The position numbers were made by a program, and so were the translations under genes. Positions 15,546 through 41,107 of a DNA stretch of 64,000 nt are shown one piece after another. Every line of letters begins with the position of its first letter. The first letter of the stretch is position 1. The notes under the pieces are model-generated. The model was not told the origin of the DNA. It saw only the letters and a list, made by a program, of their open reading frames with translations, and searched no databases. Source of the DNA: a virus (lineage: Duplodnaviria; Heunggongvirae; Uroviricota; Caudoviricetes); IMG/VR virus record IMGVR_UViG_3300020577_013140, positions 20,381 through 84,380 of that record. One strand, 5' to 3'.

Positions 15546-16148
15546 TCAACGTATAAACGGATCCCATTCAGGGAACCGAGGGTCGCGCCTTAACCTTACA
15601 GCCATTGGCTTGGGCTTCGGAGGTTCTAGCCTGATCCGTAGAGTCAGTCCGACTTCGTGTGCAGGACGGTCTCCCTTCTTGCGGTTATTAACGATCGCTG
15701 TTAATCCACAATTTGTCCAGTCCGTCTTGCCTCCCTTGGATTGCGCGATGTAGTGGTCCATATCGCAGTCATCCCACTTCATCTGTTCGAGCGTGTACAT
15801 ATCTTTGCCCTTCTGTCTCTCCCATAAAGCCACCTTGGTCAGGTTGGGCTCAACAAGAGGCACACGATCGTATTCCGCAAGTACAATGATGGATGGCACA
15901 CGTATGGTTTGTTTGGCTGTACTCACATGCCGGTCAGTGGGACGAACAGGCAGCGTCAACCAGTCTTCCCACTTGACCGGACCTACGATGTCATGGTTCT
16001 CGTCGACCTCCAGCGCCGTCGCCACTTTCGTAGAAGGGTCCTTGCGCCTTGGTTTGGAAAGGAGGAAAAAAGCACGCCGCACGGATATGAGCCGGAGCGG
16101 CTGCATAAGGCGATTCAACAGCAGTACTTTTTCGTCGAGAATGTTCAT
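15546..16148 (-). CDS. HNH endonuclease
   Basis: DMDHYIAQSKGGKTDWTNCGLTAIVNNRKKG. Confidence 0.55.
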   Translation of the reverse strand: MNILDEKVLLLNRLMQPLRLISVRRAFFLLSKPRRKDPSTKVATALEVDENHDIVGPVKWEDWLTLPVRPTDRHVSTAKQTIRVPSIIVLAEYDRVPLVEPNLTKVALWERQKGKDMYTLEQMKWDDCDMDHYIAQSKGGKTDWTNCGLTAIVNNRKKGDRPAHEVGLTLRIRLEPPKPKPMAVRLRRDPRFPEWDPFIR

Positions 16149-16645
16149 ATGACAACCATGTAGTTTTCGTTCAGTAGTTCCGCCAAGATTGGTCGGACTT
16201 GTGTTTCCCAGTCAAGACCTCCATTACCGCAGCCCACCTTCGGCAGGCAGATCGGCAGGATTTCTTTGGACGCCATTGTATATGATGCCATCACTTGTGG
16301 CCACCATAACGTTAAGGTTATTGCACTGGAGCGGATCAGTGATAAATCTGACGGGTTGCTCCAGTGATGCTTGGTTGGAAACGAGATGAGCCTCCCAGGA
16401 GGGTAAGCAAATGGATGGTTTCCCAGTCCGGCAACCAGGTTCCCCCAATTTTTTCGTACCTCTGGAAATCGCTCGGCCGCATCGCGTGCCAGCCCTTTAC
16501 CCATGATCAACAACCCGTCTCGATTTACAACTCCGTTAGTCGGTATGCAGATCCAGTGGCCCAGTGCATGGTAGTACCACAGGCTCCCTGATTGCGTGCG
16601 CATTGGTGATTTCCTGCCATTGTACGATAAAGGCACCACGACCAA
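16145..16645 (-). CDS. Macro-domain (ADP-ribose binding/processing)-like protein
   Basis: ICIPTNGVVNRDGLLIMGKGLARDAAERF matches a-IVNaaN..GgGV..aI. KVGCGNGGLDWETQVRPIL is the G-rich second motif. The start may be the internal Met at 16603. Confidence 0.4.
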   Translation of the reverse strand: MVVVPLSYNGRKSPMRTQSGSLWYYHALGHWICIPTNGVVNRDGLLIMGKGLARDAAERFPEVRKNWGNLVAGLGNHPFAYPPGRLISFPTKHHWSNPSDLSLIRSSAITLTLWWPQVMASYTMASKEILPICLPKVGCGNGGLDWETQVRPILAELLNENYMVVI

Positions 16646-17015
16646 GACGTCTTTGCAGAAACTTCTTGGTCGGGTCCAGGCCTTTTTCTCGCATCAACTT
16701 ATCGCGCAACGGGATGTCTGTGACTTCAGCCACGGATAGATCAATGGACTTTGTTATCCAGGTGCGCTTCATACGCTTACTCGACCGAGGTGCCCCCTGA
16801 GTCAACAAAGCGTTGGATGAATTGGACGTTAGCAAGTACCTGCCTTGCTTTTCCAAGCCCCATGGAGAACGGAAACCGTGCTCCTGGGTTTAATAGAATC
16901 GTTGGTTTGCCCTGGTACTCGCTGATCACCGGAATCGAAGACTCAGGGACAGGGGCAGGTGCAGGGGCAGAATTTTCAGGGATATCGGTGCGTGTTACGT
17001 TAGACATGATGGAAA

Positions 17016-17090
17016 TGCTCCGTACAGGACTTGAACCTGTAGCCTTCTCGTTAGGACCGAGACGCTCTAATCCAGTTGAGCTAACGGAGC
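17016..17090 (-). tRNA. tRNA-Arg(CCT)
   Basis: Cloverleaf with acceptor GCTCCGT/ACGGAGC and anticodon loop GTCCTAA. Confidence 0.7.
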
Positions 17091-17097
17091 GAAGAGG

Positions 17098-17916
17098 TTA
17101 TTGTTGGGTTGCAGCAGAAGCACTATTAAAAACTGGCGGAGCGTTGTCGAAGATTGCTTCCTCCTTGTTCACGACCTTACTAAGTTCGTAAGGCCATTCG
17201 ACTACGTCTGTCCTAAGCACCTTGCTGCCGGGTGGAGGGCGATGTTGCTCCGGGATGGCCACAAAGTCATCCGGGCATAGCTCCCGCTCGACAGTCTGCT
17301 TGCGATAGAAGGCACCGGTCTTAACCCACTTCGGGTAGTCGGCCCAGTTAATACCTTTTTGGAAAAGCATCTCCTGTTGCTCGTCGGCACTTTTACCGTG
17401 CAGCTCTTTGTTCGAATAGTGCGCTTGAGCTGCCGACGAGATGCTATTTCTTCGAGCGTCCTTCTCACGCCACAATAGTACGTTCACAGCTTCGTACTTT
17501 GTCGGAAGCTGCCAAACGCGACAATCAAACGTCGCAGGCTTCACAAGAGGCACTGACAGGCTTTTTCCGAGAAACTCGTTGAACGCCGCAGTGGCGATCG
17601 AAGCCAGTACCGAGGTCAGCTTGTACAGCTTACCATCGAAGAATATCTGTGACTTCGGATTCTCTTGATACAAGATCAAAGAGATCTCATCCGATTGCGT
17701 GTAGCCGATCACGGCCCCAGACTCACGCAGCAGTTGGTCGGTCGCGTAGACAAACGCCGCATGGAGGTCTTCATCAAAGGGTTTCTTGAACCGCTTAGTA
17801 AATGTGTGGAATGCACGCCCATCAATTCGGGCGGCGACTGGAAGCAGAGGGAGTAACGTTCGACCCGTCTCCATTGCTTCATACTCTTTCATCCGATCGC
17901 CAAATTCATCTCTCAT
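17098..17916 (-). CDS. Thg1-like protein (tRNA-His guanylyltransferase / 3'-5' polymerase family, TLP)
   Basis: ARIDGRAFHTF..KPFDEDL..VIGYTQSDEISLIL..FFDGKLYKLTSVLASIATAAFNEF aligns to human THG1L VVRLDGRNFHRF..KPNDSRAL..IVIAYGQSDEYSFVF. Confidence 0.85.
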   Translation of the reverse strand: MRDEFGDRMKEYEAMETGRTLLPLLPVAARIDGRAFHTFTKRFKKPFDEDLHAAFVYATDQLLRESGAVIGYTQSDEISLILYQENPKSQIFFDGKLYKLTSVLASIATAAFNEFLGKSLSVPLVKPATFDCRVWQLPTKYEAVNVLLWREKDARRNSISSAAQAHYSNKELHGKSADEQQEMLFQKGINWADYPKWVKTGAFYRKQTVERELCPDDFVAIPEQHRPPPGSKVLRTDVVEWPYELSKVVNKEEAIFDNAPPVFNSASAATQQ

Positions 17917-17919
17917 AAA

Positions 17920-17949
17920 GAAAAAAGCCTGCGTAAAACGCAGGCGGAA
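17920..17949 (-). terminator. Intrinsic terminator (minus strand) between the tRNA cluster and the Thg1-like gene
   Basis: AAAAAA-GCCTGCG-TAAAA-CGCAGGC. Confidence 0.45.
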
Positions 17950-17950
17950 A

Positions 17951-18053
17951 TGGTGCCCTCGGCAGGATTCGAACCTGCATACGTGCGCTTATCTAGCGCA
18001 TGCTTTCGCCCGGGAATAAGCCGGGAGCCCTAACCAGTTGAAGCTACGAGGGC
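17951..18053 (-). tRNA. Atypical 103-nt tRNA (encoded CCA; anticodon loop CTTATTC giving UAU?) with a 30-nt variable region
   Basis: GCCCTCG..CGAGGGC-A-CCA acceptor, T-arm GCAGG-TTCGAAT-CCTGC, anticodon stem CCCGG/CCGGG, extra hairpin GCATGCGC-TAGATAA-GCGCA. Confidence 0.5.
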
Positions 18054-18256
18054 TATTTAGTGCTGTTCGTCCAAACCTGAGACACAGTCGACCCATCAGG
18101 ATAGATGTAGTGTATGTGGTCAGGATCGTTCTTCGGAACTTTCACCGGCGCAGTTTTGGCTGTCGGTGTATGTTCTTTGTACGTATTGGAAGAGTTGCAG
18201 CCAACGACGATGCCTGCAGTTACGAGCAACGCGATAAAAATCTGAGGCGCTTTCAT
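18053..18256 (-). CDS. Small lipoprotein
   Basis: MKAPQIFIALLVTAGIVVGC lipobox. Confidence 0.45.
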   Translation of the reverse strand: MKAPQIFIALLVTAGIVVGCNSSNTYKEHTPTAKTAPVKVPKNDPDHIHYIYPDGSTVSQVWTNSTK

Positions 18257-18272
18257 GGCTGTAGAAGGGAAT

Positions 18273-18361
18273 TGGCGGATGGGGAGGGATTCGAACCCTC
18301 ACCGGCTTTTAACCGGGCAGCTTAGCAGGCTGCTCTAGCACTCCAACTCTAGCGCCCATCC
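18273..18361 (-). tRNA. tRNA-Ser(GCT), class II, CCA encoded
   Basis: Acceptor GGATGGG/CCCATCC, anticodon loop CTGCTAA, long variable arm. Confidence 0.7.
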
Positions 18362-18400
18362 ATAAACCAACGATGCACGCCTCATCAATAAAAGTCAATC

Positions 18401-18685: not shown

Positions 18686-18734
18686 GAGAAAAATCGAGTT
18701 TTTGCTGAGTCATTAGCGGTTCATGAGTATCCAG

Positions 18735-18971
18735 TCATGTGCAACAATGCACAACGATGTCGTGCTCCTGTTCCTCCATCCAACGAGGTTTGGCTTTCAT
18801 GTCAGTTCGAGGAGGGTTAATTGGTGGATCCTGGCACTCAAACCAGACTACGATGTCTTGTTCCCCTTGAGCTTCAAACCAACGTGCGAAGTGGCGCGCC
18901 TGCTCAATGGTGAGACCGTCGAAGATTACTCTTGCCATAATGTGTTCTTTTCCCATCGACTGTGGCGCCAA
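18735..18971 (-). CDS. hypothetical protein
   Basis: 78-aa ORF; overlaps the 3' end of the next gene. Confidence 0.3.
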   Translation of the reverse strand: MAPQSMGKEHIMARVIFDGLTIEQARHFARWFEAQGEQDIVVWFECQDPPINPPRTDMKAKPRWMEEQEHDIVVHCCT

Positions 18972-19969
18972 TGGCTGTCTGTGCTTACGTGGTTCGGCCG
19001 TACAAACTTTGCCACGTTACTGCGAAAGGCACCGTAATTGAACGCACTGGAATTGCGCACGACATAGCCTTCCATCAAGTCCGGTGTTCTATTCGGAACA
19101 TACAATGACCGGATCTTCTCTTCATCCCATGCGCCGCGATACAGCACTGGAACTGTTTGAAGCCCAAGTAGTTCTGCCCACTCGGTTGTTTCATCCCAGG
19201 ACAAACAAACGTTCCGTTCGTTCCAAATGGAGAACACCTGGAAATACGCACGCAACTGCTTGTAGTGGATGCTGTGTTTAATCAGTAAGTTCTCTCCGCA
19301 CACACGCCAGCCTTCTGGAATTTCATGTGCGACCTGTGTCCACGCGCGCCATACTTCAGCACGGTCCGCACCACTGGCCTTTTCCAAGGAGCGCGCATGA
19401 ACGTAGTCGTTGTAAAGCGTCGTATTTTCACCATCCAGTTTTTCAGTGACCACCACTTCCATTCCATTGAACGGCTCCAAGGAAGGAAGCACCCGGTCAT
19501 CGCTTGAAGGGCAGGACCAAGGCAAATGATAAGTTCGTGGGTACTTGACGTACTTTACAAACAGAGGCAACACTCCACCTTGTGACAGAATCTTCTGTAC
19601 GCTCTCGTCAAAGAACAACTCGCCTTTTAGCCGTGTGCCATTCGGCAAGACCGGATTGCCCCATTTGTCGTATTCTTGGTCTCGGTACAGATGCGCCGGT
19701 AAAAGAGTCTGTGTTATTCCTGCACGTTCTCGCAAGGTCGCCGGAGACAGTGTCGTCTCCTCGGCCTGGATGTGGTGTATGGCACAGAGGCTTGCTCCGT
19801 TGTCCAGGAAGTAACCGCCGGCCTCAGTCGGCTCCGTCCAGAGCCTCCGCTCCATAATATGATGTGCGTCGAGAGGACCAGAGGCCCGACATACTACGCA
19901 GCGATTGTCGTCGCGGGCAAACACAGCCTCACGAAAAGCGTTACGTTCCAGCAAGGTAGAAGTTGTCAT
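18926..19969 (-). CDS. HNH-nuclease-domain / RNA ligase (Rnl2/Rnl5-like nucleotidyltransferase) fusion protein
   Basis: N-terminal CVVCRASGPLDAHHI..LCAIHH (HNH). C-terminal ligase motifs TEKLDGEN (I), CGENL (III), EGYVVR (IV), KFVR (V). Start moved to the Met at 19969 because tRNA-Leu occupies 19976..20056. Confidence 0.65.
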   Translation of the reverse strand: MTTSTLLERNAFREAVFARDDNRCVVCRASGPLDAHHIMERRLWTEPTEAGGYFLDNGASLCAIHHIQAEETTLSPATLRERAGITQTLLPAHLYRDQEYDKWGNPVLPNGTRLKGELFFDESVQKILSQGGVLPLFVKYVKYPRTYHLPWSCPSSDDRVLPSLEPFNGMEVVVTEKLDGENTTLYNDYVHARSLEKASGADRAEVWRAWTQVAHEIPEGWRVCGENLLIKHSIHYKQLRAYFQVFSIWNERNVCLSWDETTEWAELLGLQTVPVLYRGAWDEEKIRSLYVPNRTPDLMEGYVVRNSSAFNYGAFRSNVAKFVRPNHVSTDSHWRHSRWEKNTLWQE

Positions 19970-21496: not shown

Positions 21497-22618
21497 TTAC
21501 TTTTTGGTCTTTTTCTTGACCTTCTTGGAGCGCCGGGCCTTCGGGGCAGCGATCTCCCTGGCCGTCACCACTTGCCCGGTGAGCTCGCAATACTGGTTGC
21601 GATTCTGCCAGCGGCTTTCATACCGCTTGGAATTCCGAACATTGTGTCGCTCGAAGAATCGCCGAACTTTTTCGAGATCGACTTGATCAGTCGGATGCTT
21701 CAGGTTGTGTTTGTCGAGTATCCTGAGCATTTCCTTCAGCTTATGCTCATAATGGAAACGCCGGTCGAGCAACCACAGCGTACCGAGCACACGCTCTTGC
21801 GTACTGAGCTTACCCTTCTTCTGAAGCTTGGCCCAATATTTATGCAAGTCTTCGACGTTGTGTACTTCAAGCCCGAGGTCGTGGTGAAGCCATCCTTCGC
21901 GCCAGATCTTGACGACAGTATCATCCGAGCCAATCCGGAGGTATATAAACTTTCGGGCGATCTGGTACGTGTACCATGCTGCCCGGAATCGGAAGTCAGA
22001 CGTGAAGGCCGCAAAGCATCGACCGAGAAGGTTCGATACCAAATCATCCAGCTCCTTGCCTTTGGCTGAGAGCTCGTCTTTGTAGCGGTTCAGTGCATAA
22101 CGAATGTGTTCGCACTCCTCAAACAACTGATAAACCTCGGCCAACGCCGGGTCGCTCCGACGCAACACACTCTCGAATTCTGGGCGGTGCTTCCGTTGAT
22201 ACGTTGCTGCGGCGTGCTTCTCCTCTATTTCGGCCTTGGCCTCAGGTGAGGGCGCAGCATCTATCTGAGCTGTCCACCAGTCATCGAGATGATCTTCCAA
22301 GTCGTCCGCCTGTGAACTTTCATGATTGCCGCAAATAGCGGTCGCGAATAGTGAAGGGCGGTCCATCACCTCATTATCGACGCCTGAGCCAAGTATCCAA
22401 TAGGCTCCGTTTCCTTTTCCTCCCAGCCAGGCAGGCCACAGCTTGGGAAGTAGCTCCGCGATGTCCGGGAAGCGTTCTTTAAGGGACTCAAACACTTCAG
22501 GCTTGGTCATCCGATAAAGGCTAAAATAGATCTTACTGATGCGTTCCGGGTCAGATAGTCCCATTGGGTTTTTCAGGTTCAACTGCCGGAGGAGTGCAAA
22601 CCGAACAGAGGCACTCAT
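21497..22618 (-). CDS. hypothetical protein with Lys-rich C-terminal tail
   Basis: 373-aa ORF ending ...KARRSKKVKKKTKK. Confidence 0.45.
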   Translation of the reverse strand: MSASVRFALLRQLNLKNPMGLSDPERISKIYFSLYRMTKPEVFESLKERFPDIAELLPKLWPAWLGGKGNGAYWILGSGVDNEVMDRPSLFATAICGNHESSQADDLEDHLDDWWTAQIDAAPSPEAKAEIEEKHAAATYQRKHRPEFESVLRRSDPALAEVYQLFEECEHIRYALNRYKDELSAKGKELDDLVSNLLGRCFAAFTSDFRFRAAWYTYQIARKFIYLRIGSDDTVVKIWREGWLHHDLGLEVHNVEDLHKYWAKLQKKGKLSTQERVLGTLWLLDRRFHYEHKLKEMLRILDKHNLKHPTDQVDLEKVRRFFERHNVRNSKRYESRWQNRNQYCELTGQVVTAREIAAPKARRSKKVKKKTKK

Positions 22619-22726: not shown

Positions 22727-23110
22727 TCATAACGCAAGAGCTAGCTGCCTCAGCTGATCAACTGCCGCATCCGGTGATGGCGCAGGGTCGACAAACCGAA
22801 AGGCAGGGGCCGCCTTTTTCCGGTCTTTCTCCTCCTCCTCGCGCTCTTCTTCTTTGGTAGGAGCCGGACCCATTTGCTTCAGTACGCAAGGTTCACAGTA
22901 GCCCAACAGCTGATACTTGAAAGCATACCATGGGTGGCTAAATGCCTTTGCCTTCCCCTTGCAGAGTTGGCAATTTTCACCGTCATAGAAAATAGGAAAG
23001 CCATCGCTGTCCCGTTTCCATTGTTTGCACTCAGGAAACTTCGGAATATGCCGCTTCCAGAACGGCACAGGTTTTTCTTCTTTGTCGGATTTCTTCATGA
23101 GGTTGGCCAC
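22727..23110 (-). CDS. Cys-rich hypothetical protein (CQLCKGK..CEPC)
   Basis: 127-aa ORF. Confidence 0.4.
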   Translation of the reverse strand: MANLMKKSDKEEKPVPFWKRHIPKFPECKQWKRDSDGFPIFYDGENCQLCKGKAKAFSHPWYAFKYQLLGYCEPCVLKQMGPAPTKEEEREEEEKDRKKAAPAFRFVDPAPSPDAAVDQLRQLALAL

Positions 23111-23574
23111 ACATATGGCAAGTTATCAGGCACTACCCAATTAAACTGGCGGTACCACTCCGGGGCTTTCCGCAGCAAGTTGCTGCGATGTGAATCATGG
23201 AAAGCGTCCGTACCGAACCACGGAGGCTTTAAGGCGTCTTCAGTTTTCGTTGCAGGGTTTACGGCAGGTACCAACGCAATAATCCGTGCACGACAGGAAT
23301 CCCTATAGTTACGACGGACCCATTCATCGCAGATTTCAATACCGTATTCCGCCAGGGAAGGCTCGAATCCTTTCCACATCTTGGCGGCCGGGTGATTCAC
23401 CCACCCTTTCGGGTTGAACGGCTCAACGATCCAGCCGGTAACTGTTTCGACCACCTTCGTTCTGGTCAACGCTTGAAGTAGTTGAACACACTCAACGCGC
23501 TGTTTACCAAGTCGTTTATTGTCCAGCGCCCAAGCTGAGCGCCGGAAGTCAGGATACGGAAGAAAGGTCTGCAT
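23095..23574 (-). CDS. conserved hypothetical protein (N-terminal MQTFLPYPDF..LDNKRLGKQRVE motif)
   Basis: 159-aa ORF; the family was not confidently recognised. Confidence 0.45.
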   Translation of the reverse strand: MQTFLPYPDFRRSAWALDNKRLGKQRVECVQLLQALTRTKVVETVTGWIVEPFNPKGWVNHPAAKMWKGFEPSLAEYGIEICDEWVRRNYRDSCRARIIALVPAVNPATKTEDALKPPWFGTDAFHDSHRSNLLRKAPEWYRQFNWVVPDNLPYVWPTS

Positions 23575-23579: not shown

Positions 23580-23661
23580 TGGTGCGAGTGACAGGAGTCG
23601 AACCTGCAAGGGTTTCCCCACGTCGTCCTAAGCGACGCGCGTCTGCCGTTCCGCCACACTC
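23580..23661 (-). tRNA. tRNA-Leu(TAG), class II
   Basis: Anticodon arm CGTCG-CTTAGGA-CGACG, long variable arm. Confidence 0.65.
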
Positions 23662-24104
23662 GCAAAAGTCTTCACCGCGTGACAGTTTGGGCAGAGTGAC
23701 TGTAAATTCTCAATGCGGTTATCGAAATGATCACCATTGATATGGTCCAGCTCCAATGGTATAGAAGTTCCCTGCCACTTACGACGGTTACAATGTTGGC
23801 ATTTGTCTGGGAGTAATCCTTCCGCGACAAGCCTTTTACGCAGCTTGGATGGTGTAATCTTTACTACAGTTTCTCGTGTTAGGTAATCGGTGACTGGGCG
23901 GGCAGGTGGGAAGGTCTTTCCACGCCTCCAAGCTGATCCTGTAAAGTGCGAGCTGTCTATCCCGAGTTGCTGCGCTCTTTTTGTCAAGTGCGTTTGCGCT
24001 CCGGTTGCCGGAGTAACATTTAACTTTTTGCAAACTTGTGCCCAAGATGAGGACGCAGCAATGACAGGTGAGAGCAGTTCTTTTGTATAACGATTTCGTG
24101 GCAT
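23628..24104 (-). CDS. HNH homing endonuclease
   Basis: LELDHINGDHFDNRIENLQSLCPNCH; the C-terminal 11 codons overlap the tRNA-Leu gene. Confidence 0.7.
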   Translation of the reverse strand: MPRNRYTKELLSPVIAASSSWAQVCKKLNVTPATGAQTHLTKRAQQLGIDSSHFTGSAWRRGKTFPPARPVTDYLTRETVVKITPSKLRKRLVAEGLLPDKCQHCNRRKWQGTSIPLELDHINGDHFDNRIENLQSLCPNCHAVKTFASVAERQTRVA

Positions 24105-24145: not shown

Positions 24146-25483
24146 CTATTCGTAGTTCCGAATCGCCCTTACAAAGGGGATCTGAGGAACTCCATATTCC
24201 GACAGCTGTTGGTATTCCACAGTAGCCATCTCGCCGATGAACTCCTCACGGCGTTCATACAGTTCACGTAGCCATTCACGATCACCCTCAATATTGGAGG
24301 CAAACGCTGTCTCACCTGTGGGAGTAGGATCGTGAAGCTTGAGCACAATGCGTTTGGCGCACCCGACCCAATCTCCATTACCCTCCTCGATGGCAACGAC
24401 TTCAAACTCGTCGTCATCCTCGTGCTTAAGCTTTAGCATCTGTTTGGATCGTCCATGCTTGAACTCGCATTTACCCCAGCGGATCATCAGACCTTCACCC
24501 TTGGCTGCCTTGTTGGCTTCCATGAGCTTGGTGATCTCGGCCTTGGATTTGGCCACGACGTACGGGTGCATCACCAGATGGCGGCCGACCTTGTATTTCT
24601 TCTGGATATCCTCAATCAAGGTCTTGACCGCAGCATACCGCTCAATCCACGGAGTTTCCGTAGTAATACCATTGAAGCCGTAACCATCGAACACGTAGAA
24701 CTTGACCAGCTCTTCGGATTCGGCACGCATCTCAGGCGTGATGTCCTTGGGTTGATAGACCACGCTGACGATCTCAACCAACCGGTTCAGTCGTTCCCGC
24801 AACTCGTGATTGTGCGCTTCGCCGTCAATGAACGCTTCCGGATGCTCCGCGAAGATAGGCGAAAGGGCCGCACGGATATGGGGAATCGTATGAAATAGTT
24901 TTCCGCCTGTCGACAGTGCGCCCACCGCGGTGTTCTGACAGCGGATGCCGTTGAGCTTGTCTTGGACATAGACCGGATATTCGACTTCATCTTCTCGGTC
25001 GACGAACTTGTCACCCTTCATGGGTTTCTTGAACGCGACTTTGTCGACCGCCTTGATATCAGCCGTGTAGCCAAGGGTTTGCTTCTTGTCCCATTTGGCT
25101 TTCGCTTCCTTGATGGCTTGCTCGGCCGCCGTGGTAGCGTTCGCCTTGCCGGTGTTCTTGGCTTCACAGGTATGCGCCGCGGAGGTCGTCAACTTGCCAC
25201 CGACAACACCCTCTTCAACGAAGTAGCTGTTGCCTTTGGTATAGATGCGCCACTGCTGGAGCTTACCGTTAGAATTTCGTTTGTAGAGAGTTGCTAGTGT
25301 TTCGGACATGTTGTTGAATTGAATTGCGGCGCCACACGCTCCACCGTTTGCAACCGGTGCCCAATGCTTAATCGGGTTGCTACCCTGAGTTGTGGTCTTC
25401 GGGGCCGTCGCCCCTGTTTCGGATACCATGTACGCCGTATCTCGGTAGTTCTGAGCACGGAACGTTTTGATCACGGGCCGCAA
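24146..25483 (-). CDS. ATP-dependent DNA ligase with N-terminal extension
   Basis: Motifs KLNGIR (I), FIDGEAH (III), EGLMIR (IV), LKLK (V); start uncertain. Confidence 0.7.
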   Translation of the reverse strand: MRPVIKTFRAQNYRDTAYMVSETGATAPKTTTQGSNPIKHWAPVANGGACGAAIQFNNMSETLATLYKRNSNGKLQQWRIYTKGNSYFVEEGVVGGKLTTSAAHTCEAKNTGKANATTAAEQAIKEAKAKWDKKQTLGYTADIKAVDKVAFKKPMKGDKFVDREDEVEYPVYVQDKLNGIRCQNTAVGALSTGGKLFHTIPHIRAALSPIFAEHPEAFIDGEAHNHELRERLNRLVEIVSVVYQPKDITPEMRAESEELVKFYVFDGYGFNGITTETPWIERYAAVKTLIEDIQKKYKVGRHLVMHPYVVAKSKAEITKLMEANKAAKGEGLMIRWGKCEFKHGRSKQMLKLKHEDDDEFEVVAIEEGNGDWVGCAKRIVLKLHDPTPTGETAFASNIEGDREWLRELYERREEFIGEMATVEYQQLSEYGVPQIPFVRAIRNYE

Positions 25484-27145: not shown

Positions 27146-27862
27146 TCAACTCCCTTTGATTCTTCGGCGCCAGTAAGCCAGCCCAAGGAGAGGAAATACT
27201 CCGAGGAGAACCTTGCCTGCTGAAGCCTCAGGGACAACAGCGACATTGCCGATAAGCCCTTGCGCCAGGCGGTAATCCCCTTGAGACGTTGACGGTCCCC
27301 ACCAGATGGCTGCGTCACCGGCTACCGCAAGCTCCTCAGGAGAGTGGATCCAGGAAGTGACCTGCCCGTAAGCACCGTCAGTCATTCCATGCGTTGACGC
27401 ACGGAAACGCCCAGAAGACAACGAAGGAGTTTCGTCATACAACGACTCCCACACCAACACCTGAAGCGCGACGGCTTCGGCGTTGTTGTGCACCTGGTCA
27501 TGGAACGTGAAGTACACACGAACAGCGCGTTCGAGGCCACCCGGAGCCCAATCAGGAGTCTGCCAAGAAGGCATTCCCTGGGCCACGAGGATCGGAATCG
27601 GGGTGAATTGCCCCGAACTCAGATGCGCGCCGATGTCCGTGCAGTACGTCAGCCACGAGGCTCCAGCCGTCGGAGTGGCGCGAAGCTGCCCGGCATTGAC
27701 CGACGAAAAGTCGCTGCCATCAATGGACACACGAGCAGTTCCGCCGAATAAAGATGGTACGTTGAGCCAGGAATCAACAGCGAGGTTGTCTCCGAGGGCC
27801 GTGAATGCGGTCATGAGGAACATGACAGCGCCGAACAGTAGTGACCGGATGTTTTTCTTCAT
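27146..27862 (-). CDS. Secreted protein with PEP-CTERM-like C-terminal sorting signal
   Basis: Signal peptide MKKNIRSLLFGAVMFLMTAFTALG. C-terminus VPEASAGKVLLGVFPLLGLAYWRRRIKGS: PEA, a TM helix, then an Arg cluster. Confidence 0.55.
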   Translation of the reverse strand: MKKNIRSLLFGAVMFLMTAFTALGDNLAVDSWLNVPSLFGGTARVSIDGSDFSSVNAGQLRATPTAGASWLTYCTDIGAHLSSGQFTPIPILVAQGMPSWQTPDWAPGGLERAVRVYFTFHDQVHNNAEAVALQVLVWESLYDETPSLSSGRFRASTHGMTDGAYGQVTSWIHSPEELAVAGDAAIWWGPSTSQGDYRLAQGLIGNVAVVPEASAGKVLLGVFPLLGLAYWRRRIKGS

Positions 27863-27900
27863 TGGGTTATGTATCTTAACTTTGATTATGAGGTAAAGCA

Positions 27901-27973
27901 AGCGCTACCAGGGAATCGAACCCTGCGAAGAGAGTTTTGCAGACTCCTCAGTTACCCAGCTCCGTCGTAGCGC
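27901..27973 (-). tRNA. tRNA-Cys(GCA)
   Basis: Anticodon arm GGAGT-CTGCAAA-ACTCT. Confidence 0.6.
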
Positions 27974-27979: not shown

Positions 27980-28058
27980 TGGGGTGACCAACGGGACTCG
28001 AACCCGCAACCGACAGCTTCACAAGCTGTGGCTCTACCGATTGAGCTATGGCCACCAT
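27980..28058 (-). tRNA. tRNA-His(GTG) with genomically encoded G-1, C73 and CCA
   Basis: G-GTGGCCA..TGGTCAC-C-CCA; anticodon arm ACAGC-TTGTGAA-GCTGT. Confidence 0.7.
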
Positions 28059-28059
28059 A

Positions 28060-28797
28060 TCAGGGCAAAACGAGCTCTCGTTCCCCTATGGAAAATTTAC
28101 CGTCCGTGAACACGCCGTAATACCTTAAGTAAGTATCAAGGCAGTAGTTTTGGCTCCCATGCACGACGCCTGTGCGTCGGTTGGTATCGTACTTCCAGAC
28201 ATCTCGACGAGGCGTATGACCGAATAACTGGTTCAACCCAGGGGTGGGTAGAAACTCAGACGTGTCACACCAGAGGAGACCTCCGAATGGCGTTCGTCCT
28301 CCACGTGCCGTACCGGCTTCAAAGAACCAGTGCGGACGTTCCTGCCGGAGTTTCATCTGAGCTTGCACAGACTGTCCTTCGAGCCACTCCTTCGGTGCCG
28401 CCCGGAAAGAAGCAGGGATATGGGAAGTCGTTACGCCAGCGTGTGTGCATAGCCAGTCTTCTTCCCAGTGAACGAATTCAAATCGGTCCCAATGTTTTTG
28501 AGTAACGAGATCTCGAATGGCTTCGCATTTAGCTGTCGTATAGCCGGAGCAACGGGTGTGGCGACTTGGAAAGGCGTAGTGCACGTCGTGGTTGCCCCAG
28601 ATGAATACGTCTTCCGGATGAAGGCGCATCCGGCGGATCAACCAGGTGGCCGTATGCTGCGACAGCTCTTCATCATCATGGAAATCGTCAAACCAGTCAC
28701 CGAGAAAGACTACTTTGTCTGGTAACTCTTTTAGAAGAATCTCTTCAACCGCAATGGTGTTATGATGGATATCCGGAATGATGACGGTCTTTTTCAT
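28060..28797 (-). CDS. Calcineurin-like metallophosphoesterase
   Basis: IPDIHHN, GDWFDDFHDD and GNHD motifs; start at MKKTVII to avoid tRNA-Val. Confidence 0.65.
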   Translation of the reverse strand: MKKTVIIPDIHHNTIAVEEILLKELPDKVVFLGDWFDDFHDDEELSQHTATWLIRRMRLHPEDVFIWGNHDVHYAFPSRHTRCSGYTTAKCEAIRDLVTQKHWDRFEFVHWEEDWLCTHAGVTTSHIPASFRAAPKEWLEGQSVQAQMKLRQERPHWFFEAGTARGGRTPFGGLLWCDTSEFLPTPGLNQLFGHTPRRDVWKYDTNRRTGVVHGSQNYCLDTYLRYYGVFTDGKFSIGERELVLP

Positions 28798-28914: not shown

Positions 28915-29460
28915 CTACGACCCGTGGTGGTCGATCGGCTTCCAGTTTTTCTTTGCCATGTATATCGCGACCTCATCAAAGGTGACAGGGCGATATCCGT
29001 GAACGTCCACGCCAACGTCGATTGACCGAGCATTGGGGTCGTCCGGCAAAGAGCCATGGGAATGGCCGTACAGTTGCCAGGTGCCGTGGTGTGACTTGTT
29101 CCACACTCTCATGGCATAGTGGCTTAATATAATCCGTTGTCCTTCGACGTCTACCTCTGCTTCAGCTGGAAGAAAGGTAACCTTGTGATCCCACCGTCGT
29201 TCCTGACGGACGCGCTTCATTTCTTTGTCGTGATTTCCCATGACGAAGAAGATGTGTCCATTCAGTCTGGAGAGATATCTTTCTGAGGGGGCGAAGGAGA
29301 AATCCCCCAAGTGATACACGGTTTCCTCCGGTCCAACAACTGCGTTCCAGTTTTGGATCAGTGATTCATCCATGTCGTAAACGCTCTTAAAAGGGCGGTT
29401 ACAATACCGAATAATATTTGCGTGGCCGAAATGTGTATCGGCCGTGAAGTATGTGTTCAT
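28915..29460 (-). CDS. Metallophosphoesterase (lambda-phosphatase / YfcE-like)
   Basis: ADTHFGH, GDFSF and GNHDKE motifs. Confidence 0.65.
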   Translation of the reverse strand: MNTYFTADTHFGHANIIRYCNRPFKSVYDMDESLIQNWNAVVGPEETVYHLGDFSFAPSERYLSRLNGHIFFVMGNHDKEMKRVRQERRWDHKVTFLPAEAEVDVEGQRIILSHYAMRVWNKSHHGTWQLYGHSHGSLPDDPNARSIDVGVDVHGYRPVTFDEVAIYMAKKNWKPIDHHGS

Positions 29461-32804: not shown

Positions 32805-32893
32805 TGGCGGAGACGGTAGGATTCGAACCTACGGCGGTGTGACCCGCGTCCGTTTTCAAAACGGATGCCTTAGACCGGCTCAGCCACGTCTCC
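32805..32893 (-). tRNA. tRNA-Ser(TGA), class II, CCA encoded
   Basis: Acceptor GGAGACG/CGTCTCC, anticodon arm TCCGT-TTTGAAA-ACGGA. Confidence 0.7.
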
Positions 32894-33307
32894 TAAAACT
32901 GTGATTGGAAAATCAGCTATAAGTAGCCTCGATTTAGCGTATTTACTGGGGGTTGTCGCCAACGATACCGTGCACGTGGATTTTACGTCTGCTGCTGGTA
33001 TCCAGCAAACCAAGTCTAATTCGTTTATGTAGACTGCAAGGACGTCACACTCTGTGGGGTCAAAACGAACAATGGTGTTAGTGCTTTTGTTAGGACGTAC
33101 TTTTTTGATTTGAACAGGATATGACCCATCTGAGCCCCTAACATTCGTGCTCTTTACAGAGATGCGAAGAAGCTGAGCACCTTTGGACGCAACCAAGTCA
33201 AATGGTGCTTTTCCAGAGATCTGCGAAAACACGTGATAACGTGCCTTGGTCAGCTCATAGATGGCCCGTGCCTCAGCTTTTGCCGAAAAATATGTCTTGT
33301 CATCCAT
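32870..33307 (-). CDS. hypothetical protein, possible PD-(D/E)XK-like nuclease fold
   Basis: 145-aa ORF with an FDLVA..LLRISVKS pattern; the 3' end overlaps tRNA-Ser. Confidence 0.35.
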   Translation of the reverse strand: MDDKTYFSAKAEARAIYELTKARYHVFSQISGKAPFDLVASKGAQLLRISVKSTNVRGSDGSYPVQIKKVRPNKSTNTIVRFDPTECDVLAVYINELDLVCWIPAADVKSTCTVSLATTPSKYAKSRLLIADFPITVLGDVAEPV

Positions 33308-33427
33308 GCCTTAAGTTTAGTAAACCTGAGGCAGTAATACAATAAAAATTGGCTCTAGTCCTGTGAATCGAACACAGATAAACGAGTTAACAGCTCGCCG
33401 TAATACCGTTATACGAGACTAGAATGA

Positions 33428-34823: not shown

Positions 34824-34827
34824 ATGG

Positions 34828-35240
34828 TGGAGATGCCGGGAGTTGAACCCGGGTCCCATAAACCAACTATCAACCAATGCTACATGCTTAGTTCGTTCAA
34901 ATAAGACCTCATACCCGAATGAACAAAGGAGTGAGGAATTTATCCACTGTGATATGAACGCCGGTACTGTGGACCCTGTGGCGTAAACCCTGAAAAACAC
35001 CGACCCTAAATATCAGGAGTCTCCAGGCGGTGGCTTCACCATGATTAGGCGAAGGCGAGCTGGGCAGGGGCAGGAAGCGCAAAGGCAGCCTTGACCGAAG
35101 CCCAGGCATTCTTGGCAAAACCGACAACTGCATTGATCACGTTATTGGCGTGTTGTTTTGATGGGTGTTGAAAGGGCTAACCATCATCCCTTGCATGCAT
35201 TGAGTATCCGTTTAGTCTAGGTCGAAACCAGTACATCCCC
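34828..35240 (-). ncRNA. ssrA: tmRNA (ssrA)
   Basis: 5' end GGGGATGTACTGGTTTCGACCTAG pairs with 3' end GGTTCAACTCCCGGCATCTCC-ACCA, a tRNA-Ala-like T-arm and acceptor. An internal ORF ends ..AKNAWASVKAAFALPAPAQLAFA* (candidate tag). Confidence 0.6.
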
Positions 35241-36440: not shown

Positions 36441-36554
36441 AGCACCTGGTTGGACTCGAACCAACGGCCAGACCTTGCTCCCGGCATTTTGGTCCTTCAC
36501 CATTGCACTCTCGTGCTTGAGGGAGGTCTGCTCTACCAACTGAGCTACAGGGGC
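36441..36554 (-). tRNA. tRNA with 41-nt insertion in the anticodon loop (putative intron; identity unresolved)
   Basis: Canonical acceptor GCCCCTG, D-arm GCTC-AGTTGGTA-GAGC and T-arm GTTGG-TTCGAGT-CCAAC. Anticodon stem GACCT...AGGTC is separated by 48 nt instead of 7. Confidence 0.55.
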
Positions 36555-37545: not shown

Positions 37546-37579
37546 GGTGTCAATGATGTTACTCTCTACCAATGGAAAA

Positions 37580-37655: not shown

Positions 37656-37834
37656 AAAAAACTAGGTCTCCCTCACGGGAGCCTAGCAAGAATGACAAAG
37701 TATGTGACGAACAGCTCCCACCAAGCACGTCACTCGTTCGTTTCCGATGCGTTGTTGGACGAGTGGGATTCGACCTCAAGTAAATACTGGACGGCAAGCG
37801 TCCAGGTGCGAGAGGATCCTCGTCATCCTTAAAG

Positions 37835-38191
37835 TTAGAAGCGATGGTTGCAATGGGTGCAAGCCACGCGGAAAATCTTTTCGTCTCTCCAATCACCACC
37901 ATCTCGAATGGGAGGTTGATGGTCGACGGTCGCTTTCTTCTTCAACGGGCCGTCTAACAACAAAGGGCGCCCGCAGCGCCAGCACTTCAATTCACCGTTA
38001 TCCTTGTGGACCTTTTTGAGCCAGCGCCGGCTGATACGATACATCCTTGCGTCAGTGTAGATGCTGTGATCAAGGGCAACGTAATGTCGCGATAACAACA
38101 CTAGACTGGCAAACGATGACGCAACGGGTTTGGTGATCAATACTTTGTGCCGCGACCAGCGGCGCATATATTTGCCTTCTGATCGTGTCAT
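37835..38191 (-). CDS. HNH endonuclease
   Basis: CWRCGRP..VDHQPPIRDGG..ACTHCNHR. Confidence 0.6.
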   Translation of the reverse strand: MTRSEGKYMRRWSRHKVLITKPVASSFASLVLLSRHYVALDHSIYTDARMYRISRRWLKKVHKDNGELKCWRCGRPLLLDGPLKKKATVDHQPPIRDGGDWRDEKIFRVACTHCNHRF

Positions 38192-38200
38192 TGTGATAGT

Positions 38201-38277
38201 TGGTAGCCCTATTGGGATTCGAACCCAACTCTTCGTCGTGAAAGGACGAGATCCTGAGCCGGCTAGACGATAGGGCC
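38201..38277 (-). tRNA. tRNA-Glu(TTC), CCA encoded
   Basis: Anticodon arm TCGTC-CTTTCAC-GACGA. Confidence 0.7.
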
Positions 38278-38420
38278 ATTAAAAGGGAAGTCCGAGAAGA
38301 TAGAACAGAAGCGGGATAAAGAGCATGATCGCTACAACCCAACCGACAACTACCAGTGACGGGTTGTCCCATGGTCCCTCTGGACGCTGTTCTTCTTCGT
38401 CATCAAAGTTGTTAGGAATG

Positions 38421-38726
38421 TCAGCCACAACATTTCTTGTATTTCTTCCCGCTCCCGCAGGAGCAGGGGTCATTGCGTCCGGTCGTTTGAACTTTCACTG
38501 GATGGCGCACAACGTGAACACCTGCCGGAGAGATGTACAGGCCTTTGACTGTTGGGTGTTCGCGGTTTGCGATCTGCCGAAGGATTTCTGCACATACAGG
38601 ATCGCTGTCTTCTACCTTCGCAGGCACAGCCTCTCCCATAAAGTCGGCGTGCATTGAATGAGCTGCAGCATCCACCGCAAGCTGCATCAAAGCAAGGCGC
38701 TCTGGTCGGTTCAAATTACAATTCAT
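38421..38726 (-). CDS. SEC-C motif (YecA-like metal-binding) protein
   Basis: C-terminal [19 protein letters not shown]. Confidence 0.45.
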
Positions 38727-38736
38727 GTATGATGAA

Positions 38737-38815
38737 TATGGCGGGAGCGACGGGATTCGAACCCGCAGCCTCTACCGTGACAGGGTAACGCTCTAAACCA
38801 TTTGAGCTACGCCCC
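38737..38815 (-). tRNA. tRNA-Asp(GTC), CCA encoded
   Basis: Anticodon arm TTACC-CTGTCAC-GGTAG. Confidence 0.65.
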
Positions 38816-38823
38816 CGCTGAAA

Positions 38824-39189
38824 TTATTCGGTTGTGAGAAGTCTTCCGAATTCGGCCAAGTGATACCGGAAATGTGCCACCACCTTGCTCATATCCAGCA
38901 TGGCCACCATGTGCTGACCGGTCGGATCCGGGCACTCGGACTTGAACCGGTTGTCAGCCAGACGGCGACGGGCCGAGATGTGTTCTGCTTGTTCAAGGCG
39001 CCACTTGTGAAAAGCGCGTGCGCGCTGCATGAATTCAAAGTAGCCAGGAAGACTTTCTGCACGTGTAAGAAACGCGACAGCGTCATGTTCGCCGCTACCA
39101 GTTGGCCGCATTTCCTGCGCCAATGCATTGATAGCGTCGTGTGTGGCCCAGTAATTTTGGGCAACCGTCACCAGTTCAGTTGTTGTCAT
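38824..39189 (-). CDS. hypothetical protein
   Basis: 121-aa ORF. Confidence 0.4.
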   Translation of the reverse strand: MTTTELVTVAQNYWATHDAINALAQEMRPTGSGEHDAVAFLTRAESLPGYFEFMQRARAFHKWRLEQAEHISARRRLADNRFKSECPDPTGQHMVAMLDMSKVVAHFRYHLAEFGRLLTTE

Positions 39190-39199
39190 GAAAATTTGT

Positions 39200-39271
39200 G
39201 GAGCCTAGGGGATTCGAACCCCTGACCTTCTCAATGCCATTGAGACGCTCTACCAACTGAGCTAAGACCCC
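39200..39271 (-). tRNA. tRNA-Ala(GGC)
   Basis: Anticodon arm TCTCA-ATGGCAT-TGAGA; D-arm GCTC-AGTTGGTA-GAGC. Confidence 0.65.
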
Positions 39272-39279
39272 ATTGAAAA

Positions 39280-39756
39280 TCAGATGCCAGGATGCCGCAA
39301 TTCGACCATGGTCAAAACGGCATGTTCGGCCAGTTGTCGACGTATCAACCTTTCGGTGTACTCGGGGTCGTCCAGAGCACGGAGCGCACGAATGATCGCA
39401 CCAGATGCCTGGTGCAGGCATACTCCCGCCGCACCGTTCTTGGGTAACCCGTTTTCACCAACCGCAAGTTGATTGGCGAGAACGTCATATTCATCACTAG
39501 CAGCCTGCAGCTTTGCTTTGATTTCTTCCAGCGTAAGTTGGTTCGACATATTTGTGTGAGGAGGGTGTGCACTGCAGTTTCCGCCCACACATCTGCCAGT
39601 GTGGTCTACACGAATGAAACCACAGCCTTCGCAGAGCGCACTCACATACCTGCCGGCAGCGGTGTCTTCAGCGGTTGAAAGGCCAGAAAGATCCCCGGGT
39701 TCACTGTCTGAGATACCGAGAATATGAACAGAACATTGTCTACAGAAATCTGACAT
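39280..39756 (-). CDS. Cys-rich hypothetical protein
   Basis: 158-aa ORF. Confidence 0.4.
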   Translation of the reverse strand: MSDFCRQCSVHILGISDSEPGDLSGLSTAEDTAAGRYVSALCEGCGFIRVDHTGRCVGGNCSAHPPHTNMSNQLTLEEIKAKLQAASDEYDVLANQLAVGENGLPKNGAAGVCLHQASGAIIRALRALDDPEYTERLIRRQLAEHAVLTMVELRHPGI

Positions 39757-39764
39757 AAAAAAAT

Positions 39765-39836
39765 TGGCCGAGGGAGGGGTCGAACCTCCAATCTATCACT
39801 TACTAGAGCGATTGCTTTACCATTAAGCTACCCGGA
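39765..39836 (-). ncRNA. tRNA-like element (T-arm GGAGG-TTCGACC-CCTCC; acceptor and anticodon arms not resolvable)
   Basis: T-loop signature and tRNA-like spacing, but no canonical acceptor pairing was found. Confidence 0.25.
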
Positions 39837-39840
39837 AAAA

Positions 39841-39915
39841 TGGAGCACCATGAGGGACTTGAACCCTCGTATTCACTTTGGAAGAGTGATGCCTGAGCCT
39901 CTCGGCCAATGGTGC
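39841..39915 (-). tRNA. tRNA-Gly(TCC), CCA encoded
   Basis: Acceptor GCACCAT/ATGGTGC, anticodon arm TCACT-CTTCCAA-AGTGA. Confidence 0.65.
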
Positions 39916-39994
39916 GGGAAGAGGGACTGACGATGCACTGGGCCTCAGGATATACCTTTGGTTGGTGTGCCCCGCATCCGTATCCCTCAAAATA

Positions 39995-40067
39995 TGGAGC
40001 CTAGGGGATTCGAACCCCTGACCTGTTGCTTGCAAAGCAGCCGCTCTACCAACTGAGCTAAGGCCCC
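39995..40067 (-). tRNA. tRNA-Ala(TGC)
   Basis: Anticodon loop TTTGCAA; D-arm GCTC-AGTTGGTA-GAGC. Confidence 0.65.
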
Positions 40068-40265
40068 TGAAAACTAATAGGTCGGTAATCATCGGAGCAC
40101 CTGGGTGCTTAAGCGAGCCCGCCAATGGCGCCACGGCGTCTCTCTACTGTGTTTCCCTGAACTTACCGACCAAGGCATTCACCGTCCTCCGACACCGGAG
40201 GTCCATGATTATACTTGGTTTTCAATCATGTTGAGCCCGCGCGATATTGGGCACGATTACTGAAA

Positions 40266-40339
40266 GTGGCAGGCGGTGTAGGTGTCGAACCTACCTGAAC
40301 GGTTTTGGAGACCATTGTCCTCGCCAGCGAGGCCCGCCT
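40266..40339 (-). tRNA. tRNA-Trp(CCA) with atypically short D-arm, CCA encoded
   Basis: Anticodon arm ATGGT-CTCCAAA-ACCGT matches tRNA-Trp; acceptor AGGCGGG/ACCGCCT-G-CCA. Confidence 0.5.
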
Positions 40340-40351
40340 ATGAAAATTCAC

Positions 40352-40386
40352 TTGGCTAAAAAAAGATCGCGTAAGCCGCGATCTTT
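40352..40386 (-). terminator. Intrinsic terminator (minus strand)
   Basis: GCTAAAAAAA-GATCGCG-TAAGCC-GCGATC. Confidence 0.55.
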
Positions 40387-40404
40387 CGCGTAGCCGCCGC
40401 TGCT

Positions 40405-40923
40405 CTACTTGTCTTGGAGGACTTCCACGGCAGGCTCGTTCGATTGAGTCTGCACGAACTTACGGCTACCGACCCGGTAGATGGCATACGGCCGTCCCCA
40501 GATATCCTTCCGGACCTCGAACGTCCGTGTCATGAGACAGTCGACCGGTGCCAAGGCGGCCTGGCGGTACCAGGGCCCTTGGTGGTCCAGGCTGTTCGAT
40601 AGTTCGAACACGCTCTTGGAATTCTGGTAGCAGATGATCCAATGGATCAGCTTGCAGGCCACCAGGAGGATGCACAGCCGAACGAGCCAGCGGGGGAGGA
40701 ATATCTTTTTGCGATTGTTGTTGTTATTTTTATTCTTACCATTTTTAGGCGGGATTGTTGGAGGACTGCCACCACCAGTCGGAACTGGATTGGCGTTCGC
40801 CGGGGTTGCACCCGGAGGAGGCAGCGTACTCGAGGAGGACGCCGTGGGAGCAGCTTGAAGCTGTGCGTTGCGGGTGTTGAGGCCGGGAACCGCGTCCCCG
40901 ACTGTCGCGAATGAGGTAGTCAT
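40405..40923 (-). CDS. membrane protein with Pro/Asn-rich low-complexity N-terminal region
   Basis: TM helix LVRLCILLVACKLIHWII. Confidence 0.4.
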   Translation of the reverse strand: MTTSFATVGDAVPGLNTRNAQLQAAPTASSSSTLPPPGATPANANPVPTGGGSPPTIPPKNGKNKNNNNNRKKIFLPRWLVRLCILLVACKLIHWIICYQNSKSVFELSNSLDHQGPWYRQAALAPVDCLMTRTFEVRKDIWGRPYAIYRVGSRKFVQTQSNEPAVEVLQDK

Positions 40924-40975
40924 AACAGTAGTATCCGTAGATCAGTCCGCCGTTTGTTAGGTGCGACGGACCTGT

Positions 40976-40989
40976 CAAGCTATTATACC
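40976..40989 (+). promoter_or_regulatory. CAAGnTATTATACC promoter-like motif (copy)
   Basis: caagctattatacc. Confidence 0.3.
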
Positions 40990-41032
40990 ATCTATCGACG
41001 CATAGCCCTACGGGGGGAGGGGAGGGGTGGAG

Positions 41033-41107
41033 CGGGTAGAGGGAATCGAACCCTCACATGGATCTTGGCAAGATCCCAGGCTGGCCGTTACATCATACCC
41101 ACAAAAA
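41033..41107 (-). tRNA. tRNA-Gly(GCC), CCA encoded
   Basis: Anticodon arm GGATC-TTGCCAA-GATCC. Confidence 0.65.

Follow-up and report, generated by a model that had tools for sequence, protein, structure and literature searches.

A jumbo-phage tRNA array and its interleaved genes: probably a mosaic rather than one RNA-repair pathway

The Pnkp and Rnl1 proteins of phage T4 repair tRNA-Lys that has been cleaved by PrrC. A wider jumbo-phage RNA-repair repertoire, made up of tRNAs, HNH-fused Rnl2 ligases, calcineurin-like phosphoesterases, Macro, Thg1 and PTH2, is set out by Iyer, Anantharaman, Krishnan, Burroughs and Aravind (2021, PMC7824862), where the genes are read as counter-measures to tRNA-cleaving host defences. 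Long tRNA arrays have also been described with HNH homing endonucleases and the RNA ligase RtcB beside them, in work that also discusses T4 SegB (PMC8421152), and orphan DarG-like antitoxins encoded by phages are known to act against DarTG (PMC11481870, PMC11825919, PMC13309987). Here we analyse a 64,000-nucleotide stretch of viral DNA (positions 20,381-84,380 of IMGVR_UViG_3300020577_013140, referred to as the window), in which a tRNA array is interleaved with a Thg1-like protein (TLP), a fusion of an HNH domain to an RNA ligase (HNH–ligase) and several other genes of these kinds. All statements of absence are limited to these 64 kb.

The reading that we favour, at a rough probability of 60%, is that of a tRNA array for translational autonomy accompanied by a mosaic of independently acquired accessory genes, which do not make up one pathway. 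The array supplies the phage with a nearly full decoding set and, by the usual reasoning, would keep its translation going where host tRNAs are unsuited, depleted or cleaved. The accessory genes would fall into three classes: two RNA-end enzymes, the TLP and the HNH–ligase, each of which probably helps to maintain tRNA while acting independently of the other; DNA-repair and anti-defence genes, comprising a DNA ligase, a glycosylase resembling endonuclease V, a DarG-like macrodomain and two phosphoesterases; and homing endonucleases, selfish genes of a kind that tRNA arrays typically harbour. The identities of the genes, their synteny, their separate losses and the enrichment figures given below are observed; the biochemical activities and substrates of all of these proteins we infer. 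The relatives used for comparison (L204, L206 and others named below) include a 107-kb ENA contig, a 211-kb NCBI contig and the 226.5-kb record RXKB01000001.1, which appears as both L207 and L218; contigs from the phage and its relatives span 107-227 kb.

ARAGORN finds 34 tRNA genes between positions 17016 and 41102, every one on the minus strand, and Rfam confirms these and adds two insertion-bearing tRNA-like genes (17954-18053 and 36441-36554) and a tmRNA. The total of 36 tRNA or tRNA-like genes (33 standard and 3 aberrant) plus the tmRNA agrees with a preliminary description of this DNA, which had counted about 37 such genes and a tmRNA on the same strand. Nineteen amino acids are covered, in keeping with its count of at least 19 specificities; it had also reported no tRNA-Asn with anticodon GTT, which is in fact present at 33350-33423, the sole missing specificity being Trp (CCA anticodon). 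A CCA end is encoded in 22 of the 36 genes. When the acceptor stems were audited, the 33 standard tRNAs proved free of mismatches at positions 1-3, with tRNA-Thr(GGT) mismatched at position 6, and mismatches at positions 1-3 were confined to two of the odd genes. The tmRNA (34825-35240, minus strand) was missed by ARAGORN though it is strong in Rfam (RF00023, 108.9 bits against a gathering score of 47). It has a tRNA-Ala-like acceptor with G3:U70 and an encoded CCA, begins with GGGGAUG and ends with CAUCUCCACCA, and its tag reading frame is open, UAA-terminated and unusually long (about 33 codons, ANNVINAV...AQLAFA*); it is kept in L207 and L209.

The TLP gene (17098-17916, minus strand) matches Pfam Thg1 (PF04446) at 104.3 bits against a gathering score of 29.2 (E = 5.9e-30) and PHROG 4717 at 3.5e-81. 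As judged by homology, its product is a bacterial-type 3'-5' nucleotidyltransferase and not of the eukaryotic Thg1 subtype, because its closest solved relative is the Bacillus thuringiensis TLP (4kgk, 1.8e-41; yeast, human and Candida Thg1 match only at 1e-8 to 1e-11) and because the catalytic metal carboxylates of the RIDG and SDE motifs are kept, with D32, S75, D76 and E77 invariant in a 5-sequence alignment. About 60 additional C-terminal residues are common to the phage homologues. The TLP has relatives in 164 records of INPHARED and on 469 contigs of IMG/VR, contrary to the earlier view that Thg1 and PTH2 enzymes are unusual in a phage. Published TLPs repair 5'-truncated tRNAs in vitro by templated 3'-5' addition (PMC3061083, PMC3701042), and the phage protein could rebuild tRNA 5' ends, including G-1 of a C73-type tRNA-His. 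The tRNA-His of the array (27980-28056, minus strand) has C73, an encoded CCA and, opposite C73, a G-1 that is already encoded in the genome, as in L204, L218 and L209, so that the TLP is not strictly needed to provide it. Widespread 5' mismatches as editing substrates were likewise rejected, given that the standard tRNAs are clean at acceptor positions 1-3. In L206, the one relative without the TLP, a different tRNA-His with A73 and no CCA lies at 1278-1349, a single case that may be coincidence.

The HNH–ligase (18926-19969, minus strand, 347 residues) joins an N-terminal HNH/zinc domain to the nucleotidyltransferase domain of an ATP-dependent RNA ligase. The latter matches Pfam RNA_ligase (PF09414) at 105.4 bits against a gathering score of 27 (E = 4.7e-30), and the full-length architecture is that of an existing family, PHROG 24030 (7.5e-127). 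Ligase motifs I (KxDGxN), III, IV and V are invariant in 48 sequences at K177, D179, G180, E226, E300, G301 and K321, and the HNH/zinc domain is invariant in 48 homologues at C24, C27, H36, H37, N57, C62 and H66; several HNH PHROGs match this domain at about 1e-5, and Pfam HNH_2 matches it under its cut-off. Sequence and profile searches of the PDB gave no significant match to any solved ligase. The AlphaFold2 (AF2) model of the protein, with a predicted local distance difference test (pLDDT) score of 93.7, has as its top fold match NgrRnl, the nick-sealing RNA ligase of Naegleria, followed by archaeal Rnl3, REL1, T4 Rnl2 and Trl1; these five matches, NgrRnl included, have a probability of 1.0 and E-values between 4e-7 and 1e-4. 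At least 7830 proteins belong to the family, with 56-60% identity over the full length, and no biochemistry on it was reported in the literature searched. The ends produced by HNH cleavage are 3'-OH/5'-P, so that no kinase is required for an Rnl-type ligase to join them, and the phage enzyme would be able to seal tRNA breaks with such ends in the same kinase-free manner.

Comparison with the relatives shows that these genes come and go separately. The order of the tRNAs is the same in all relatives compared and most of the interleaved genes are syntenic. L204 has both the HNH–ligase and the TLP, with the DNA ligase reduced to a 22-residue remnant; the HNH–ligase is present and the TLP absent in L206; and in RXKB01000001.1 the TLP is present and the HNH–ligase is missing together with tRNA-Leu(CAA). 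This last record is filed as a metagenome-assembled genome of Candidatus Dependentiae bacterium isolate AWTP1-30; it carries the syntenic tRNA array, the tmRNA and the TLP, and is probably a mis-binned phage genome. An open reading frame (ORF) of 158 residues, tried as an anchor for finding relatives, had too few homologues.

A broader comparison was made on IMG/VR, taking 36 HNH–ligase loci, 80 TLP loci and 79 control loci centred on ThyX, and counting features within 10 kb. At least one, five and ten tRNAs were found at 20, 11 and 10 of the 36 HNH–ligase loci, respectively, compared to 24, 10 and 1 of the 80 TLP loci and 18, 7 and 0 of the 79 controls. Dense arrays of ten or more tRNAs are thus enriched beside the HNH–ligase (10/36 against 0/79, p = 3e-6), and for at least one tRNA the TLP shows no enrichment (24/80 against 18/79, p = 0.37), both p-values being rough and indicative only. 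The tRNAs near the HNH–ligase mostly share its orientation (182 co-oriented, 11 not). The HNH–ligase is therefore the one enzyme with a recurrent genomic tie to dense tRNA arrays. No other neighbour is conserved at HNH–ligase loci except a DNA ligase at 7 of the 36, nor at TLP loci except a gene resembling the second metallophosphoesterase at 7 and an Rnl5-like RNA ligase at 8 of the 80. A CCA-adding enzyme was considered as a partner of the TLP and dropped, as it occurs at only 3 of these 80 loci. In none of the 80 TLP loci does an HNH–ligase lie within 10 kb, and the two genes are 330 kb apart in LR745208 and 42 kb apart in RsoM2USA.

Several points weigh against the mosaic reading. In the window and in L204 only 1 kb separates the TLP from the HNH–ligase. 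The Rnl5-like ligases near TLPs are absent from the controls (8/80 against 0/79, p = 0.0065), which makes some functional link between the TLP and an RNA ligase possible; the loci concerned, where the ligase has an N-terminal OB-like domain, are L046, L062, L069, L075, L081, L101, L107 and L117. The sets of loci hold near-duplicate contigs, and the ThyX control samples somewhat different phages, which makes all of these p-values rough. Finally, the window covers 64 kb of the genome, and a kinase, Tpt1 or a CCA-adding enzyme could be encoded elsewhere. The three alternatives to the mosaic that follow are possible but less likely.

The first of them concerns the homing endonucleases that are found in these arrays. 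The window carries a free-standing HNH homing endonuclease (23628-24104, PHROG 10822 at 6.9e-43), a small HNH endonuclease (37835-38191, PHROG 589/338) and a PD-(D/E)XK endonuclease (32870-33307, Pfam PDDEXK_5 at 5.5e-19), the last probably a homing endonuclease, all on the minus strand. Genes of the HNH and PDDEXK_5 types sit at different sites from relative to relative, including copies of the free-standing HNH gene and, in L207 and L209, of the PD-(D/E)XK gene. The tRNA-Leu(taa) that is intact in the window has its counterpart site in L207 (7715-7908) occupied by a group I intron (RF00028, 60 bits), which an HNH ORF overlaps; introns and homing endonucleases thus evidently move through arrays of this kind. 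Such variable positions, together with the intron of one relative, give two of the HNH genes and the PD-(D/E)XK gene the appearance of mobile homing endonucleases. The HNH–ligase could itself be mainly selfish, its HNH domain cutting DNA in or near tRNA genes in the manner of T4 SegB and thereby spreading the gene together with neighbouring tRNAs, in which case the enrichment at arrays would reflect target preference. Its catalytic and zinc residues are indeed kept in all 48 homologues, it behaves as a cassette with tRNA-Leu(CAA) that is present or absent between the same two tRNA-Ser genes in different relatives, and homing endonucleases are known from tRNA arrays (PMC8421152); DNA is also the target suggested for the HNH domain of fused ligases by Iyer et al. 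(PMC7824862). However, neither the neighbours nor the nearest tRNAs are conserved, and nothing points to a fixed homing site. Decay is the usual fate of homing endonuclease genes, whereas this family keeps its full-length identity over thousands of members with all ligase motifs invariant. We regard the selfish explanation of the HNH–ligase as unlikely.

A second alternative is the one put forward in the preliminary description, in which the interleaved genes form a single heal-and-seal pathway for tRNA repair or counter-defence: the phosphoesterases would clear 2',3'-cyclic phosphates, the TLP would restore 5' ends, the ligase would seal and the macrodomain would clear ADP-ribose by-products. 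Profile searches (Pfam, PHROG) bear out its naming of the TLP, the HNH–ligase, the two metallophosphoesterases, three more HNH proteins and the DNA ligase. Every named family lies within 14 kb on a single strand, the arrangement is syntenic in close relatives, other RNA ligases are modestly enriched at TLP loci, and pathways of this kind have been proposed for jumbo phages (PMC7824862). The components do not fit so well when taken singly. The first metallophosphoesterase (MPE1; 28060-28797, minus strand) matches Pfam Metallophos at 1.5e-8 and PdeM weakly at 1.1e-5, with no solved relative found by sequence; its weak match to the phosphoesterase part of a 737-residue 'RNA ligase' PHROG (E = 3.9e-4) speaks for the pathway. 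The second (MPE2; 28915-29460, minus strand) matches Pfam Metallophos_2, PHROG 547 at 4.7e-56 and PDB 1xm7 at 6.8e-13. Neither has detectable similarity to solved or known RNA end-healing enzymes.

The macrodomain protein (16145-16603, minus strand, 152 residues) is of the DarG, or DNA, type and lacks the DarT-binding domain. Pfam misses it, but the earlier identification is supported by matches to PDB 5m3i (1.5e-9) and 5m31 (1.1e-6), to PHROG 335 and to NCBIfam antitoxin_DarG (4e-14), the last over the macro part only (model positions 25-138) and at 52.6 bits against a cut-off of 250; its size and this score below the cut-off fit an orphan macrodomain. It probably reverses DarT-type ADP-ribosylation of DNA, and the role given to it earlier, processing of ADP-ribose by-products, falls away because there is no Tpt1 in the window to produce any. 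Its partner in this lineage is a 200-residue HNH-like protein (15546-16148, minus strand; weak Pfam HNH, PHROG 16726), whose gene lies downstream, overlaps the macrodomain gene by 4 nucleotides and is adjacent to it in every relative examined, with 77-80% identity in L204, L206 and L218; the two are a conserved pair. The ATP-dependent DNA ligase (24146-25429, minus strand; Pfam DNA_ligase_A_M, PHROG 114 at 1.7e-56, NCBIfam PRK09125 at 2.9e-19) and a pyrimidine-dimer DNA glycosylase similar to T4 endonuclease V (23095-23574, minus strand; Pfam Pyr_excise at 2.2e-21) are DNA-repair genes. The PTH2 peptidyl-tRNA hydrolase noted earlier is there only as a marginal candidate 21 kb outside the array (62403-62723, minus strand), at 23.5 bits against the Pfam cut-off of 23 over model positions 1-60 of 115 and, in NCBIfam arch_pth2, at 2.2e-6 and 28 bits against a cut-off of 82.

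The earlier statement that neither a polynucleotide kinase nor Tpt1 was to be recognised stands: no 5'-OH polynucleotide kinase family occurs in the window, where the only real Walker-A ORF is the thymidylate kinase, and no scanned ORF matches Tpt1/KptA. The independent losses weaken the single pathway further, since the TLP (in L206), the HNH–ligase (in L218) and the DNA ligase (in L204) have each been lost singly, and the distances between the TLP and the HNH–ligase in other phages point the same way. With DNA-repair and homing genes among its supposed members, the heal-and-seal set does not hold together as first drawn. What survives is a role in tRNA repair or counter-defence, which is how the literature usually reads a TLP and an Rnl-type ligase when jumbo phages carry them; that they work in one joint pathway with the other genes is quite improbable.

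In this region only three conserved, aberrant tRNA-like RNAs, all of them on the minus strand, are left without an explanation. One (17954-18053, 47.1 bits in Rfam tRNA) resembles tRNA-Ile(GAU) and has A33, a hairpin inserted in the D-loop and an encoded CCA; its conservation in L204 and L206 is 94%, two of the base pairs have changed in a compensatory way, and the folding z-score is -2.8. Another (36441-36554, 47.2 bits) has its anticodon loop replaced by a structured insert of 47 nucleotides, which hardly varies in L207 and L209 and has the same sequence in three SRA assemblies, with one acceptor-stem mismatch in each lineage, a different one each time. The third (39764-39838), called 'tRNA-???' by ARAGORN and matched by Rfam over model positions 3-68 only, lacks G1G2 of the acceptor and has an 8-nucleotide anticodon loop. 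It is identical in the independent assembly L221, while in L207 the homologue has an intact acceptor stem; in neither phage is the anticodon loop of 7 nucleotides. The two inserts were rejected as introns, as no simple excision yields a canonical 7-nucleotide anticodon loop and no Rfam family fits them, and a YrlA match turned out to run across two neighbouring tRNAs. When IMG/VR was searched for exact patterns of the odd RNAs, ordinary tRNAs or nothing came up.

It is tempting to connect these RNAs to the enzymes beside them, as a new class of phage tRNA-derived RNA dependent on neighbouring end-processing enzymes, though we hold this to be a long shot. The 5'-truncated RNA would then be completed by templated 3'-5' synthesis, much as in mitochondrial tRNA 5' editing, and the insert-bearing RNAs might alternatively be decoys or substrates for the HNH–ligase. 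The presence of the TLP was examined as a correlate of the truncated tRNA and discarded, and insert-bearing tRNAs as general partners of the HNH–ligase fared no better, with none in seven distant HNH–ligase arrays. The corresponding explanation of the enzymes, that the TLP, the ligase or both mature the phage's own aberrant RNAs, can point to the conservation of all three, to the fact that the two 5' nucleotides missing from one of them are precisely those for which C71 and C72 could serve a 3'-5' polymerase as template, and to the established joining of HNH-made ends, but is very doubtful because the acceptor stem is intact in L207/L218 even though a TLP is present there, the D-loop-insert RNA persists in L206 without a TLP, the seven distant arrays hold no tRNA match longer than 93 nucleotides and neither insert can be excised to leave a canonical loop; on the first three of these grounds none of the odd RNAs can be tied to the enzymes.

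Among the other genes of the region is a conserved 373-residue protein (21497-22618, minus strand) between the endonuclease V-like gene and the HNH–ligase, 46-50% identical in all relatives and without a match in Pfam, PHROG or NCBIfam. An ORF of 238-251 residues (27146-27901, minus strand) has an N-terminal signal or transmembrane segment, is about 48-50% conserved in relatives and ends in what looks like a PEP-CTERM sorting signal (VPEAS...LLGVFPLLGLAYWRRR), which may hint at a host with an exosortase system. A gene for a Band 7 protein was confirmed in the window, and no CCA-adding enzyme and no RlaP was found in it. Relatives carry a small DUF4326 gene upstream of the HNH–ligase (L204, 8650-8922; L206, 8394-8639), and nothing in the window matches this family, which Iyer et al. 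(PMC7824862) link to Macro, NADAR and SLOG systems.

To judge by its gene content, the window clearly derives from an uncultivated tailed jumbo phage, since the array is flanked by a virion structural protein of 2275 residues and by a nucleotide-metabolism block, and since many jumbo phages have homologues of the TLP and of the ligase. The structural protein (25-6852, plus strand; the start may precede the window edge) has PHROG matches to giant virion structural, baseplate or fibre proteins, and the metabolic block upstream of the array comprises ribonucleotide reductase (RNR), dUTPase, dCMP deaminase, Tmk and ThyX. A near-identity DNA search of deposited phage records gave no match to the window, and several SRA assemblies contain the same phage. 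Directly beside the array on its downstream side (41808-49825) lie at least five glycosyltransferases, a methyltransferase and a GH130-like protein. A 229-residue ORF (7304-7993, minus strand) weakly matches RNA polymerase Rpb2 domain 3 (E = 5e-4) and may represent one piece of the beta subunit, encoded in split form, of a phage multisubunit RNA polymerase.

An array with repair genes is already described for giant phages, and our findings leave current concepts unchanged; the new points are modest, namely the enrichment of the HNH–ligase at arrays, the finding that TLP and ligase are lost independently, and the three tRNA-like RNAs. The window is a clean, well-resolved case of a giant phage assembling translational autonomy, and through comparison with relatives it puts to the test a popular assumption, namely that the tRNA arrays of phages constitute one counter-defence system with RNA-repair enzymes. 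The outcome suggests a narrower picture, in which the HNH–ligase tracks tRNA arrays and the TLP and other genes come and go independently. The HNH–ligase is thus the best single experimental target for phage tRNA repair.

Set against the described systems, the locus is familiar in its parts and distinct in their combination. Iyer et al. (PMC7824862) give genome-wide inventories, whereas the genes here are interleaved with the tRNAs, and of that repertoire a kinase, RlaP and a CCA-adding enzyme are absent from the window. As with Pnkp and Rnl1 of T4, there is a phage-encoded ATP-dependent RNA ligase that presumably reseals anticodon-loop breaks, but no polynucleotide kinase-phosphatase accompanies it and the ligase is of the PF09414 type, to which T4 Rnl1 is only a distant fold match. 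With NgrRnl and DraRnl (Rnl5) and with T4 Rnl2 it has in common motifs I, III, IV and V as well as the nucleotidyltransferase fold. Like NgrRnl it has its catalytic domain at the C-terminus, with an HNH/zinc module in place of the Rnl5 N-terminal domain; the C-terminal domain of T4 Rnl2 is absent, the protein ending about 25 residues past motif V with its extra domain at the N-terminus. The TLP shares its catalytic carboxylates with the bacterial TLPs, and differs from them in being phage-encoded and in its C-terminal extension. The macrodomain, by its similarity closest to that of DarG, stands alone like the orphan DarG-like antitoxins of other phages, though in this lineage it is always paired with the HNH-like protein. 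A parallel in layout is offered by the bacterial L-arrays (PMC8421152), where tens of co-oriented tRNAs likewise have an HNH homing endonuclease and an RNA ligase linked to them; there the ligase is RtcB and the arrays are bacterial and stress-induced, whereas here an Rnl-type ligase fused to its HNH domain is carried by a phage.

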